Sequence record: PP889466.1
Strand: one strand, 5' to 3'
Length of the DNA stretch: 64,000 nt
Source of the DNA: Klebsiella phage phi1_146015
Below the pieces are notes generated by a model, which saw only the letters and a program-made list of their open reading frames with translations, ran no database searches and was not told the origin of the DNA. Shown here one piece after another: positions 28,833 to 31,242 of this stretch (the stretch's first letter is position 1; every line of letters starts with the position of its first letter). The position numbers and the translations under genes were made by a program.

Positions 28833-29178
28833 CCTTTTCCTGTGCAGACATCCGATTATAACGGATCTCTTCGCGCTGTTCAACTTCTCTCACGGCTTCG
28901 GCTTTCTTTTCAGCGGTGAGTATGTGATGTACTACAGCGTTTCGGATTTCCCAGAGATATTCAATCATCTGCATATCTTCAACGGTGTGATAACCTTTCG
29001 CATCACATTCAAATACGATGGTATCGCGTTCTGCCATTGCTAACTGTGCAGTAGAAGGACAAATAACCATTCCAGAGTATTTTTCAATCAACGATTCCAG
29101 TGTACGCGGTTTTGCTGGAATGTCAATAGATACCGGAACCATTCGCATCGTTGAATCATTATGGGATTGATAAATCAT
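28801..29178 (-). CDS. hypothetical protein (125 aa)
   Basis: ORF. Confidence 0.45.
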   Translation of the reverse strand: MIYQSHNDSTMRMVPVSIDIPAKPRTLESLIEKYSGMVICPSTAQLAMAERDTIVFECDAKGYHTVEDMQMIEYLWEIRNAVVHHILTAEKKAEAVREVEQREEIRYNRMSAQEKDEAYEVYRRS

Positions 29179-29471
29179 CAGAATGTTATCTCCGCAAACT
29201 GCATTCTACGCTCAATCGCATGGATAGCGTTATCACGCTGTTCTTTGTTTTCATATCCAGCCCAGGTAATCGGGGTTGAACAAATCAGGTGAAAAGTGAT
29301 TGCTGGGTGTCTCTTCCCTTCAACAACGATTGTTGCATCATCTTCGATCCAGGTTACGTGATCCAGATTGACTGGATAGTTTCTTACGGTAACAGATTCA
29401 CCAACCAAAGGCGACACGTCCAGAATATCACGATCACGAACGTATGATTTAATACGAGATACGATTAACAT
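29178..29471 (-). CDS. hypothetical protein (97 aa), immediately downstream of the rSAM-like gene
   Basis: 1-nt overlap coupling with 29471-30622. Confidence 0.45.
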   Translation of the reverse strand: MLIVSRIKSYVRDRDILDVSPLVGESVTVRNYPVNLDHVTWIEDDATIVVEGKRHPAITFHLICSTPITWAGYENKEQRDNAIHAIERRMQFAEITF

Positions 29472-30622
29472 TATTTCAACTCCACTGCATATACATCGGT
29501 TTCAGGGGCTTTGTGTACGCGCATATCTTTACCACATACCGCATAAGCCGGACAGTTACGGCAACCGTTATGATCCTTGTTGCCAGTCAGTTCTTTACGG
29601 AACTGTTTTGTTTTCGGGTGTTCCCAGATATCCTTCACAAAATCTTCGGCTTCCAGAACATCCAGACCTTCTTCCCAGCCACCTTCAACCCAGCGTTCGG
29701 TAAACGAGCAAGGGAAGAACTGACCACGTTCGTTGATGTAAGAGCTAAACATCGTCGCTTCACAGTCTTCGGCGTATTGCTTGTACTGTTCGAAGTTCGG
29801 GTGTCCCTCCATCGCTTCAACGAAAGCGGGGGCTGAACAGCTATCGAATCCAAATCCTACACCAGAATCGAGGCAATATTCAACAAGTTTTTTATACTGT
29901 TCGCGGGTAACGGTGTCCCAGTTCTTACCGCGTCCCTTTTGTTTCAGTCCCAGGAACACGATCGCGTTGACTTGTTTCAGGCGCGGATCATTCTTCACGG
30001 CATCAACCACGTTAAACGCATCATCATAGGTTTTCGAGCTAACCATGAAGTGAAGGTTGATTTGCTGTTGTCCGGCTTCTGTCAGGTTCGCTACTGAGTC
30101 GAAAGCGACATCAAAACCAGCGTGTTTATAAACCGATACCGCAACAGCCCCAGCAACCGCCGCTAAACGCGCTGCAACGTCTTTTGATACGTCAGCAATG
30201 GTAAGGTTCGGCACAATGCCTTTAGAACGCGCATAGGCCATCATATCGAACATATCAGGGTTTGTTTGCCCCTGTGCATCAGCACCGAGTGCGCATTGAG
30301 TCAGCCAGGGCATTTTGTCGATGATTTTTTTGAAGTTGGCAAGATCCATGTTGAACCCGTTCGGGTTATTGGACTTGTAGCAGAACCCGCAGAGTTTACC
30401 CGCTGGCCCGTTGCATTTGGTAGTGATCTCGATATCGAGAATTTCGGGGAATGGTGCGTATTCTGGATCGTGGGAATATGTTGCACCCCAGCGAGCGAAT
30501 TCACCTGTATCAACGTTGAAATTATAATTGTAGAACTTCGAGCGAGCGAAGCGCATATTGCCGTGTTGATAGATGAACAGGGACGGCGCTTTGATGCTGG
30601 TAACGATATCGACAGATTTCAT
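29471..30622 (-). CDS. putative Fe-S enzyme: radical-SAM-like core with non-canonical Cx8Cx2C and a C-terminal SPASM/twitch-like Cys cluster
   Basis: EITTKCNGPAGKLCGFCY resembles the viperin-type CNYKCGFC but with a 5-residue insertion. C-terminal DSC..DCE..PCSF..GCRNCPAYAVCGKD matches the C-x2-C-x5-C-x3-C SPASM pattern. 383 aa. Confidence 0.4.
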   Translation of the reverse strand: MKSVDIVTSIKAPSLFIYQHGNMRFARSKFYNYNFNVDTGEFARWGATYSHDPEYAPFPEILDIEITTKCNGPAGKLCGFCYKSNNPNGFNMDLANFKKIIDKMPWLTQCALGADAQGQTNPDMFDMMAYARSKGIVPNLTIADVSKDVAARLAAVAGAVAVSVYKHAGFDVAFDSVANLTEAGQQQINLHFMVSSKTYDDAFNVVDAVKNDPRLKQVNAIVFLGLKQKGRGKNWDTVTREQYKKLVEYCLDSGVGFGFDSCSAPAFVEAMEGHPNFEQYKQYAEDCEATMFSSYINERGQFFPCSFTERWVEGGWEEGLDVLEAEDFVKDIWEHPKTKQFRKELTGNKDHNGCRNCPAYAVCGKDMRVHKAPETDVYAVELK

Positions 30623-30632
30623 AATATAATTC

Positions 30633-30839
30633 TCAAAATTTAACGTGGGATTGGAAGACAGCGCGAGCTAGTTTTTCGCTATCGAACGGGATTGATGTTC
30701 CCTGACCTTTGCTGTCAATGTTAACGCGCCAGAACTCACTCGAACCGTTTTTGGTGGAGTAATGCATCAGCGTTACCGTTTTATTCTTTTCCAGGAAAGT
30801 ACGTTTGTCAATCTCTGTTTTGATTTCGTGCTGCATCAT
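30633..30839 (-). CDS. hypothetical protein (68 aa)
   Basis: ORF upstream of the rSAM-like gene. Confidence 0.4.
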   Translation of the reverse strand: MMQHEIKTEIDKRTFLEKNKTVTLMHYSTKNGSSEFWRVNIDSKGQGTSIPFDSEKLARAVFQSHVKF

Positions 30840-31096
30840 TTTACACTCCGTTTCAGTTTACGTTCGTCAGCCAGTTCTTTTTTGTACGTTTTGATGTACT
30901 TCCCGTTAAGGATGCGAAGCTGTTGGAAAACCTTGTTGCATAAAGCACGTTTCGCTTTGTATTCCGGCGTATTGCGGATTGATTCGATCGTCATACCCAT
31001 TTCGTTTTTAGGGTACGCGCTCAACTCCCTGCCGATCTCTCTGTGCCAGTTGCTTAACTGATCACGCTGTGCTTTGTACTCTTCAAAAGTTAACAT
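30836..31096 (-). CDS. hypothetical basic protein (86 aa)
   Basis: ORF. Confidence 0.4.
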   Translation of the reverse strand: MLTFEEYKAQRDQLSNWHREIGRELSAYPKNEMGMTIESIRNTPEYKAKRALCNKVFQQLRILNGKYIKTYKKELADERKLKRSVK

Positions 31097-31242
31097 TATA
31101 ACTGATCTCCGTAATCTTTCGCTGCATCTTCGGGGGTTGCGTCCAGTCGGTAAAGCTCAACGGCTAACGGACTGGGTTTGATTTCGCGGTTCAGGATCTC
31201 ACTGATACCGCGAAGGAATTCGATATAAGGACGGAATCTCAT
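31096..31242 (-). CDS. small protein MRFRPYIEFLRGISEILNREIKPSPLAVELYRLDATPEDAAKDYGDQL (48 aa, hand-called)
   Basis: ATGA coupling with the upstream gene and TAATG coupling with the downstream gene. Below the ORF-track size cutoff. Confidence 0.35.
   Translation of the reverse strand: MRFRPYIEFLRGISEILNREIKPSPLAVELYRLDATPEDAAKDYGDQL

Follow-up and report, generated by a model that had tools for sequence, protein, structure and literature searches.

A conserved phage radical-SAM SPASM/twitch protein coupled across genomes with serine-tagged proteins, its candidate substrates

Within the 64,000 nucleotides of Klebsiella phage phi1_146015 analyzed here (PP889466.1; hereafter the window), a 383-aa protein is best interpreted, with reasonable but not strong confidence, as an active-type radical-SAM protein maturase of the SPASM/twitch branch, partnered with small proteins that carry a conserved serine-rich tag and not with the products of the small ORFs adjacent to its gene. 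The protein has the predicted fold of the superfamily, its cluster cysteines are conserved, and its gene is coupled with genes for tag proteins in genomes ranging from T4-like phages to bacterial chromosomes. The tag may well be the substrate of the enzyme.

Results

The 383-aa ORF has 1140 homologues, counted as clusters at 90% identity in a database of 5.8 billion proteins, which rules out a chance ORF, and its product is 100% identical to that of CPT_Margaery166, the radical-SAM gene of Citrobacter phage Margaery (Table 1). An earlier note, made from the sequence alone, had described a radical-SAM/SPASM-like Fe-S protein, to be judged by the presence of a radical-SAM barrel and by the conservation of its cysteines; both points were examined, and both favor this description. 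As a gene, by contrast, it is not the novelty for a T4-like phage that had been supposed, many GenBank phage records already bearing the words "radical SAM protein".

Table 1. Features of the enzyme region and of the tag genes in the window (64,000 nucleotides; all on the minus strand).
Feature	Position	Strand	Remarks
Tag protein 1, 157 aa	4675..5148	-	Acidic; starts MKIRSGFVSNSSSSSFII; candidate substrate or partner
Tag of tag protein 1	5101..5148	-	16 codons, N-terminal
Tag protein 2, 170 aa	8586..9098	-	Starts MKIRSGFVSNSSSSSFIV; phrog_7397
Tag of tag protein 2	9051..9098	-	16 codons, N-terminal
97-aa neighbor ORF	29178..29471	-	phrog_11417; 1-nt overlap with the enzyme ORF
Radical-SAM enzyme gene, 383 aa	29471..30622	-	SPASM/twitch branch; phrog_7293
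Degenerate SPASM (twitch-like) domain	29534..29839	-	Codons 262-363
Cx7Cx2C site, putative SAM-binding [4Fe-4S] cluster	30380..30415	-	Codons 70-81, C-NGPAGKL-C-GF-C
Beta-rich N-terminal domain, family-specific	30443..30622	-	Codons 1-60, strands 10-45
68-aa neighbor ORF	30633..30839	-	phrog_8584
86-aa neighbor ORF	30836..31096	-	phrog_7560
48-aa neighbor ORF	31096..31242	-	phrog_8088

The AF2 model of the enzyme (pLDDT 89.5, pTM 0.87) displays the partial TIM barrel of radical-SAM proteins, with a (beta/alpha)6 core. When PDB sequences were searched with the single sequence and with a profile, nothing better emerged than a marginal match to the C-terminal part of BtrN, so that a comparison of folds was required; seven other radical-SAM enzymes then ranked above viperin, six of these seven being peptide or protein maturases. 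The motif peptide CNGPAGKLCGFCY is indeed present, at residues 70-82. It had been announced as a non-canonical Cx8Cx2C cluster with a five-residue insertion: non-canonical it is, with the seven residues NGPAGKL between Cys70 and Cys78, hence Cx7Cx2C and an actual insertion of four residues relative to Cx3C. This spacing is common in the family, x7 being found in 98 of 120 homologues, x12 in nine and the canonical x3 in two. In an alignment of 22 homologues, down to 46% identity, C70, C78, C81, C262, C287, C305 and C357 were invariant, as was F80, which precedes the last motif cysteine; N71 and G79 were not conserved. The third motif cysteine is missing from homologue P0042.

Bacterial relatives, at 30-34% identity, possess the canonical Cx3Cx2C motif (CDKGCxFC) and a full SPASM motif, and are matched by Pfam Radical_SAM at 5e-16. 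The window enzyme gave no match to this profile (PF04055) at E up to 1, probably because the motif insertion breaks the profile match. At the position aligned with the GGE motif, which was assigned by eye, G113-A-D115 is invariant in the phage family, and the bacterial relatives have G-G-G. As judged from alignment and model, the 383-aa ORF is predicted to encode a genuine Fe-S protein of the radical-SAM/SPASM type, whose cluster motif departs from the canonical form yet is conserved.

The SPASM domain is degenerate. Its first half is present and invariant (C287-x12-G300-x4-C305), PF13186 matching at 24.5 bits for a gathering score of 21.5 and TIGR04085 falling slightly under its cutoff (24.5 vs 27). 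In the second half, seven residues within the CxxCx5Cx3C motif seen in the bacterial relatives are deleted (alignment A3), and the complete seven-cysteine motif Cx9-15Gx4C ... Cx2Cx5Cx3C ... C is absent from the window enzyme. Of the C-terminal CxxC-x5-C-x3-C cluster proposed earlier, C354-x2-C357-x5-C363 is there, but no further x3-C follows. C354 and C363 are not conserved, being missing from many homologues, and are clade-specific remnants of the site for the second cluster. The four invariant cysteines besides the SAM motif (C262, C287, C305 and C357) correspond to a truncated SPASM with a single four-ligand site, and weak profile matches were of the twitch type (BtrN, E 0.012; N_Twi_rSAM). 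By its sequence, the enzyme belongs to the twitch type, with one predicted auxiliary cluster site. The N-terminal domain is all-beta in the AF2 model, with five strands and no winged helix, and shares Y31, F35, N36, G40, F42, R44, P53 and P57 between phage and bacterial enzymes; a Pfam search of the enzyme found no RRE (PqqD-like) domain.

The tag consists of 16 serine-rich residues, MK[ITV]RxGFVSNSSSSSF, at the N-terminus of small acidic proteins. This consensus was drawn from 262 unique tag proteins, taken from loci fetched solely for holding the enzyme, with residue 7 as the start of the tag in 241 of them. S9, N10, S11 and S12 are present in all 262, the search pattern having demanded S9, S11 and S12 but not N10, while K2, R4, G6, F7, V8, S15 and F16 reach at least 95%. 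Behind the tag come hypervariable, mostly acidic bodies (median pI 4.7), the whole proteins being full-size, folded and about 90-200 aa long; the family numbers no fewer than 3654 clusters at 50% identity, and HMMER found no Pfam match in the tag proteins, DUF6375 included. Selection on the tag acts on the peptide, since all six serine codons, of both codon boxes, are found at its serine positions, with a third-position identity of 0.49. On this same codon usage, with third positions 49% identical, a recombination or regulatory cassette acting at the DNA level was rejected. A signal peptide was also rejected, the segment not being hydrophobic and being found in bacterial operons, as was a T4-like capsid-targeting sequence, there being no Glu cleavage site and the tag being present in those operons.

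The coupling of enzyme and tag was observed from both sides. Among 86 loci fetched with the enzyme, 66 hold one to eight tag ORFs, on the same strand and mostly directly adjacent; conversely, when the search began with the tag alone, 120 short loci (mean 7.9 kb) included 45 with the enzyme. Of 75 contigs that bear the tag, 37 or more hold the enzyme, a check that was possible for half of the contigs. Phages have the tag proteins in arrays, of as many as eight divergent paralogues. The coupling spans T4-like phages of Enterobacteriaceae, jumbo-phage contigs, archaeal-binned contigs and bacterial chromosomal operons. No description of the pairing was found in Pfam, NCBIfam, PHROGs or the literature searched, nor did literature searches on the tag motif, on SMEK with radical SAM, on phage RiPP radical SAM or on RB43 return one.

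The bacterial relatives sit in a four-gene operon with a tag protein and a STAND NTPase, which has a SMEK_N N-terminus and is scored as Avs2-like by PADLOC. The tag is kept as MKIKLDFVSNSSSTSF beside enzymes of about 30% identity in operons of Agrobacterium, Rhodobacter, Proteus, Vibrio and Klebsiella, and homology between one bacterial and one phage tag protein extends over the entire length of both. A tblastn search of plasmids gave seven distant matches only, yet these led to the bacterial operon.

Exactly two tag ORFs were found by motif scan and HMM over the whole window; with the tag HMM, tag protein 1 scores 39.5 bits, and the best score besides the two tag ORFs is 5.2. In the AF2 model of tag protein 1, residues 1-11 are disordered (pLDDT < 50), ahead of a confident alpha/beta domain. 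Tag protein 2 belongs to a conserved subfamily with the C-terminal motif YSDxxG...LEHGNIFRN..H..S.HH. Both tag genes share the strand of the enzyme gene but lie 20-25 kb from it in phi1_146015, so that their linkage in this phage rests on comparison with other genomes. A PHROG match of a window tag protein to a "head-tail adaptor" (phrog_132, E 2e-9, residues 77-148) was given no weight as a functional assignment. A gene for a vWA protein sits between the two tag genes; it has a single distant co-located homologue (L122) and was not counted in the system.

Discussion

Mechanistically, the flexible tag, predicted to be disordered and followed by a folded, usually acidic body, would first dock on the enzyme, whose beta-rich N-terminal domain (codons 1-60) is a candidate binding module. 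The [4Fe-4S] cluster of the Cx7Cx2C motif would then reductively cleave SAM, as is expected in this superfamily, the resulting 5'-deoxyadenosyl radical may take a hydrogen from a residue of the S9-S15 run, and an electron would pass to the single auxiliary cluster (C262/C287/C305/C357). The product could be an oxidized or cross-linked residue, and we would guess at a serine converted to formylglycine, as in anSME, or at a Phe-Ser/Asn cross-link. Such a modification would confer one shared chemical feature on diverse, fast-evolving phage proteins. The missing Pfam Radical_SAM match, the GAD reading at the assigned GGE position, the failure to detect an RRE domain and the distance between enzyme and tag genes in this phage count against this explanation.

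The tag could instead be a docking peptide, through which the variable bodies bring the enzyme to host proteins, nucleic acid or a metabolite, or regulate it, and we regard this as possible though unlikely. It fits the co-occurrence of enzyme and tag equally well, hypervariable and mostly acidic bodies are what would be expected of target-binding modules, and Avap2, a small accessory protein of a related type of operon, is known to bind the STAND protein (PMC11564622). An invariant serine run, on the other hand, is unusual in a pure docking motif, and the structural neighbors of the enzyme in the fold comparison are peptide-modifying enzymes. Moreover, in characterized SPASM/twitch maturases, the conserved peptide segment encoded beside the enzyme serves as substrate or as leader of the substrate.

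The earlier note had looked for a RiPP-like substrate among the adjacent small ORFs. In favor of this stand the fold of RiPP-maturase type and the tight coupling, which we confirmed, all five ORFs lying packed or overlapping on the minus strand. All five are also conserved genes of related phages (PHROG E 1e-34 to 1e-269). The four neighbors, however, are confined to Pseudotevenvirus and Slopekvirus loci and were absent from about 200 further loci collected around enzyme homologues or the tag; they lack the tag, according to a scan of the whole window, have no Cys/Ser-rich core and no Pfam match at gathering score, and dense packing is the norm across the whole genome region of the enzyme. We found no evidence of their membership in the enzyme system, and substrates among them are highly improbable. 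What survives is the general idea that the enzyme modifies a co-encoded polypeptide, with other partners, 20-25 kb away. A scan for promoter or terminator signals around the enzyme gene gave results no different from shuffled sequence.

It is equally hard to believe that the enzyme turns a nucleotide into a modified nucleotide, as its supposed viperin-like CN..CGFC cluster had suggested. This resemblance does not extend to the homologues, N71 and G79 being unconserved, and the viperin profiles fail: the window enzyme has neither a PADLOC pVip match nor one to the NCBIfam viperin model, and the bacterial relatives reach 34-44 bits on the latter for a cutoff of 180. The enzyme possesses a SPASM/twitch domain, absent from viperins, and viperin is outranked in the fold comparison. 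In the KpAvs2 operon, the radical-SAM protein Avap1, likened to the present enzyme by description, has no predicted NTP pocket, and no pVip-type nucleotide products were detected (PMC11564622).

Mosaic phage accessory regions, the apparently altered GGE motif (GAD) and the loss of a cysteine in homologue P0042 might suggest mere co-travelling of enzyme and tag proteins, or a dead structural protein, but a coupling kept from T4-like phages to jumbo-phage and archaeal-binned contigs and bacterial operons, at about 30% enzyme identity, and the invariance of all seven cluster cysteines in the 22-sequence alignment leave this very little credence.

Returning to a maturase acting on tag proteins, the role of the enzyme-tag system probably lies in phage-host conflict, given the homologous pair in immune-type STAND-NTPase operons and the phage arrays of up to eight tag proteins. 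One could go further and imagine that the enzyme puts an undescribed radical-SAM modification on the tag and that the modified, fast-evolving arrays of phages are mimics or antagonists of the small tag protein serving bacterial NLR-like STAND (Avs-type) immune receptors; this is a speculation, and rather a long shot. If true, it would reveal a post-translationally armed counter-defence toolkit common to T4-like and jumbo phages. The presence of a homologous pair in STAND-NTPase operons hints at a direct connection with bacterial NLR-like immunity, where the part played by radical-SAM accessory proteins is an acknowledged open question (PMC11564622). Joining the enzyme family to the tag family makes one testable two-component system out of two sets of "hypothetical proteins", with the easily grown phages of Klebsiella, Enterobacter, Cronobacter and E. 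coli (RB43, RB16, KP15, Margaery) as possible models. A modified tag would mean that full-size phage proteins undergo radical-SAM modification, through a serine-run chemistry that has few precedents.

Relation to characterized systems

QueE variants with Cx14Cx2C tolerate an insertion between the first two radical-SAM cysteines without loss of function, a precedent for the Cx7Cx2C of the present enzyme. Compared with the SPASM/twitch maturases of RiPPs (SuiB, SkfB, PqqE, CteB, EpeE), this enzyme has no detected RRE/PqqD domain, a Cx7Cx2C instead of a Cx3Cx2C motif and only one complete auxiliary site; no precursor peptide gene is conserved beside it, the conserved neighbors elsewhere being tag proteins of 90-200 aa, and the conserved segment forms the very N-terminus of its partners, which are folded proteins of full size with up to eight paralogues. 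No NCBIfam maturase model reached its cutoff with the window enzyme or the bacterial relatives.

The anSME enzymes have two auxiliary clusters, whereas one complete site is predicted here. The substrate motif of anSME/AtsB, (C/S)xPxR, is absent from the tag consensus, the tag partners are not sulfatases, and the anSME family was not among the profile matches of the window enzyme or of the bacterial relatives. From viperin and the prokaryotic viperins, the enzyme differs by the failed PADLOC and NCBIfam models and by its SPASM/twitch domain, as discussed above.

The capsid-targeting sequence of T4 internal proteins is a conserved short N-terminal segment on polymorphic small phage proteins, and the tag resembles it in being a conserved short N-terminus on otherwise polymorphic proteins. 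The tag differs in its link to a radical-SAM gene, in having no Glu cleavage site, and in its occurrence in bacterial chromosomal operons and plasmid-like contigs, without capsid context.

A further parallel is the KpAvs2 operon, in which radical-SAM Avap1 and small Avap2 accompany a STAND receptor of Avs2 type (Bechon et al., 2024; PMC11564622). The N-terminus of KpAvs2 is an Mrr nuclease, in a three-gene operon, against a SMEK_N N-terminus and four genes in the present bacterial operon, and Avap2 is reported to be DUF6375-like, whereas the tag proteins, compared by description, have no Pfam match. Avap1 is required for defence against T2 (PMC11564622), and the bacterial relatives of the present enzyme likewise adjoin an Avs2-like STAND NTPase according to PADLOC, a likeness drawn by description.

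A Radical-SAM Enzyme Accompanied by Tagged Proteins

The present analysis points to an undescribed system, widespread in large phages and found also in bacterial immune-type operons, in which a radical-SAM enzyme (the 383-aa product, hereafter the enzyme) is accompanied by proteins beginning with a 16-residue, serine-rich N-terminus, hereafter the tag. The observation made in the earlier note was real and required small motif corrections, but its ideas of viperin-like chemistry and of modified peptides encoded by the adjacent ORFs were not retained.

The window comes from a T4-like member of the Pseudotevenvirus group (Straboviridae). 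Its enzyme region shares 99.2% identity with Cronobacter phage D6b, and the enzyme is 100% identical to the product of a Citrobacter phage Margaery gene annotated "radical SAM protein". Five minus-strand ORFs occupy 29178-31242, with overlaps of 1-4 nt or a gap of 10 nt; as all five belong to PHROG families (of unknown function), they are conserved genes. The enzyme is found in 173 GenBank phage records, almost all Pseudotevenvirus/Slopekvirus-like, and cultured hosts are available for testing the enzyme and tag system. In vB_CsaM_leB, RB43, IME-CF2 and CPRSB, the gene gives two separate matches or is annotated as two CDS, the region being 179 bp longer in vB_CsaM_leB, and in VAC66 and Kiwi_ER50 the locus bears a GIY-YIG or homing endonuclease annotation, which suggests insertion of, or disruption by, mobile elements. 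A 178,077-bp contig of the Flagellimonas marina CGMCC 1.15774 assembly (NZ_JBHSCL010000010.1) encodes a 100% identical protein with the same neighbours, and appears to be an entire Pseudotevenvirus genome present as a contaminant in a marine Bacteroidota assembly.

Features of the window considered in this part
Feature	Coordinates	Strand	Remarks
Tag protein, 157 aa	4675-5148	-	starts MKIRSGFVSNSSSSSFII
vWA protein, 748 aa	6001-8247	-	phrog_2426
Tag protein, 170 aa	8586-9098	-	starts MKIRSGFVSNSSSSSFIV; phrog_7397
97-aa ORF	29178-29471	-	
383-aa ORF	29471-30622	-	the enzyme
68-aa ORF	30633-30839	-	
86-aa ORF	30836-31096	-	
48-aa ORF	31096-31242	-	

Assignment of the Enzyme

The enzyme is a radical-SAM protein of the SPASM/twitch branch. 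The radical-SAM call, already made from the sequence, was indeed borne out by a SPASM match, invariant cluster cysteines and a radical-SAM fold in which the ligands for two clusters are conserved. In Pfam, the SPASM domain alone was matched (24.5 bits, gathering score 21.5), and NCBIfam gave below-threshold matches to SPASM models, twitch models and the N-terminus of a peptide-maturase model. The alignment-based AlphaFold2 model was confident (pLDDT 89.5, pTM 0.87).

The three-cysteine radical-SAM motif is present, but spaced Cx7Cx2C and not Cx8Cx2C as first read: residues 70-82 are CNGPAGKLCGFCY, where seven residues lie between C70 and C78. Among the best 120 of 1140 homologues, this spacing was x7 in 98, x12 in nine and the canonical x3 in two, and because it varies, the extra residues constitute a variable loop insertion. 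Seven cysteines (C70, C78, C81, C262, C287, C305 and C357) are unchanged across 22 homologues, the most distant of which share 46% identity. The SPASM/twitch signature, Cx9-15Gx4C, is matched by C287-x12-G300-x4-C305. The four invariant non-SAM cysteines can form one putative auxiliary cluster. Concerning the C-terminal CxxC-x5-C-x3-C initially proposed, C354-x2-C357-x5-C363 was found, but the fourth cysteine is absent. Bacterial relatives (30-34% identity) display a canonical CDKGCxFC, a Pfam Radical_SAM match and a full SPASM motif (CxxCx5Cx3C...C), inside which alignment reveals a deletion of 7 residues in the window protein. The second auxiliary site is incomplete in the enzyme and wholly missing from many phage homologues; the enzyme, with one full site, is therefore of twitch-like type and descends from a SPASM ancestor. 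One close homologue (P0042, about 63% identity) reads CSFFYK and lacks the third cluster cysteine, whether through sequencing error or because the copy is inactivated. Two loci (L076, L083) each harbor two paralogous radical-SAM genes less than 2 kb apart, adjoining tag-gene arrays.

Genomic Coupling of the Tag Proteins to the Enzyme

All ORFs were clustered from 80 IMG/VR loci around enzyme homologues, plus phage, plasmid and bacterial loci. One protein cluster (202 members) was present in 66 of 86 enzyme loci, and a second, sharing the tag N-terminus, in 24. Tag genes lie on the enzyme's strand, mostly as its immediate neighbours on either side, and number 1-8 per locus. All cluster members begin with M-K-[ITV]-R-x-G-F-V-S-N-S-S-S-S-S-F-[IV]-[IV], with residue 7 as the tag start in 241 of 262 unique proteins from enzyme-anchored loci. 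Within these 262 proteins, S9, N10, S11 and S12 reach 100% (the search pattern demanded S9, S11 and S12 and left N10 free) and K2, R4, G6, F7, V8, S15 and F16 at least 95%, while from residue 19 onward no residue exceeds about 30%. Tag proteins have a median length of 130 aa and a median pI of 4.7; no Pfam or NCBIfam model matched them, and one subfamily is entered in PHROGs as "unknown function". Since all six serine codons, drawn from the two codon boxes, occur at the serine positions of the tag, and third-position identity is 0.49, selection bears on the peptide and not on the DNA. Judging from these sequences, the tag is a conserved N-terminal segment, under peptide-level selection, on proteins co-inherited with the enzyme.

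Reciprocally, a tag-only DNA pattern scanned over IMG/VR returned at least 120 stretches, and an enzyme homologue was found, among the matches listed, in 45 of 120 short tag loci (mean 7.9 kb). The enzyme was present on at least 37 of the 75 tag-bearing contigs listed, the remaining ones being covered to a median of 7.5% each. Several contigs without a tag gene within 6 kb of the enzyme, including a Pseudotevenvirus contig, carry tag genes elsewhere. Enzyme and tag ORFs also occur together on contigs assigned to bins of Woesearchaeota, Promethearchaeota (including one of 793 kb) and further archaea (L216, L217, L219, L222). The system may thus extend to archaeal viruses or hosts, or phage contigs may have ended up in these bins.

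A tag regex and HMM applied to the six frames of the 64-kb window detected exactly two tag ORFs (39.5 and 37.7 bits; next best 5.2); the enzyme gene lies 20.4 and 24.3 kb away from them. The 170-aa protein belongs to a subfamily with one copy per locus in 38 loci and no Pfam match; its conserved C-terminus, YSDNDG...LEHG.IFRN..H...S.H-COOH with a final His, resembles a motif for metal binding or catalysis. The 157-aa protein had 36 homologues in a word-indexed search, and its profile matched 3654 clusters in 1.84 billion representatives (167 at E <=1e-10), over the full length for most of those listed. Its AlphaFold model (pLDDT 85) shows disordered residues 1-11, then a strand (13-23) that begins an alpha/beta fold without close PDB neighbour. 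Some GenBank records label this protein "head-tail adaptor" because phrog_132 matches residues 77-148 (E 2e-9), which is probably a mis-annotation. Between both tag genes, a 748-aa protein carries an N-terminal von Willebrand A domain with a MIDAS-like DVSGSM. Among the fetched loci, its sole homologue, a distant one (27% identity; L122, 2738-4966, a 307-kb phage contig), lies directly upstream of genes for an SMC-like ATPase, two tag proteins and the radical-SAM protein.

A Bacterial Counterpart

The bacterial relatives, 1231 proteins from Agrobacterium, Xanthobacter, Shewanella, Klebsiella aerogenes, Proteus mirabilis, Vibrio vulnificus, Aeromonas and others, are located in a conserved four-gene operon. 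This encodes a SMEK_N-NACHT STAND NTPase (about 880 aa, scored by PADLOC as Avs2-like and the only PADLOC match in the operon), a 125-aa protein, a 133-aa tag protein (N-terminus MK[IV][KR][LF]DFVSNSSSTSFVYIS) and the radical-SAM/SPASM enzyme. It was observed in Agrobacterium, Rhodobacter, Proteus, Vibrio and Klebsiella (L010, L011, L224-L228), frequently in mobile islands, beside transposase or AlpA-type island genes. One bacterial tag protein can be aligned from end to end with one from a jumbo phage (30% identity over 128 aa, E 5e-11). As these operons keep the tag gene with a diverged enzyme, the pair persists down to about 30% enzyme identity, and no other finding argues more strongly for a direct functional link. 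Vibrio contigs encode a closer relative of the phage enzyme, with a tag gene immediately upstream and with SIR2 and ARPP-1/2 domain proteins encoded nearby. On a 97-kb Vibrio harveyi contig (L005) and a 249-kb contig (L008), a 68-70% identical enzyme with one tag gene immediately upstream is surrounded by SIR2, DUF2913, YkuD, DsbB, ARPP-1/2, ExoVII-L-like and metallophosphatase genes; this looks like a large plasmid or other non-T4 element.

Proposed Mechanism and Role

Reductive SAM cleavage and hydrogen abstraction are expected of the radical-SAM superfamily. The flexible tag may serve as substrate, its binding possibly helped by the enzyme's conserved beta-rich N-terminal domain; alignment of phage and bacterial enzymes shows conservation of residues 31-60. 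One residue of the serine run would be oxidised or cross-linked, and the auxiliary cluster would accept the electron. In anSME, serine is converted to formylglycine; by analogy, the simplest precedents weakly suggest formylglycine from Ser, or a Phe-to-Ser/Asn carbon-carbon link, as the product.

The main rival to the tag as substrate is that it acts as a docking peptide, the variable bodies steering or regulating the enzyme. Modification of peptides from the adjacent small ORFs fares less well: recurrence of the 97-, 68-, 86-, 48-, 83- and 125-aa neighbours was limited to Pseudotevenvirus/Slopekvirus loci by ORF clustering, as confirmed by tblastn over about 228 loci, and because small overlapping genes are the norm throughout this genome segment, their tight packing is uninformative. 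Viperin-like chemistry can be set aside, as N71 and G79 are not constant among homologues, PADLOC pVip models gave no match, the NCBIfam viperin model scored far under cutoff even for bacterial relatives, and viperins are not known to carry a C-terminal cluster domain of this kind.

The enzyme and tag system probably plays a role in phage-host conflict: the bacterial pair resides in an NLR-like operon, and the phage tag proteins form diversifying arrays.

Comparison With Known Systems

No description of the tag, or of its link to the enzyme, was found in Pfam, NCBIfam, PADLOC or the literature searched. A Klebsiella Avs2 operon was shown to require two accessory proteins: Avap1, a radical-SAM protein with neither an NTP pocket nor pVip products, and Avap2, a small protein binding Avs2, the roles of both being left open (Bechon et al., 2024; PMC11564622). 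The operon reported here differs from it by the SMEK_N N-terminus and its four genes.
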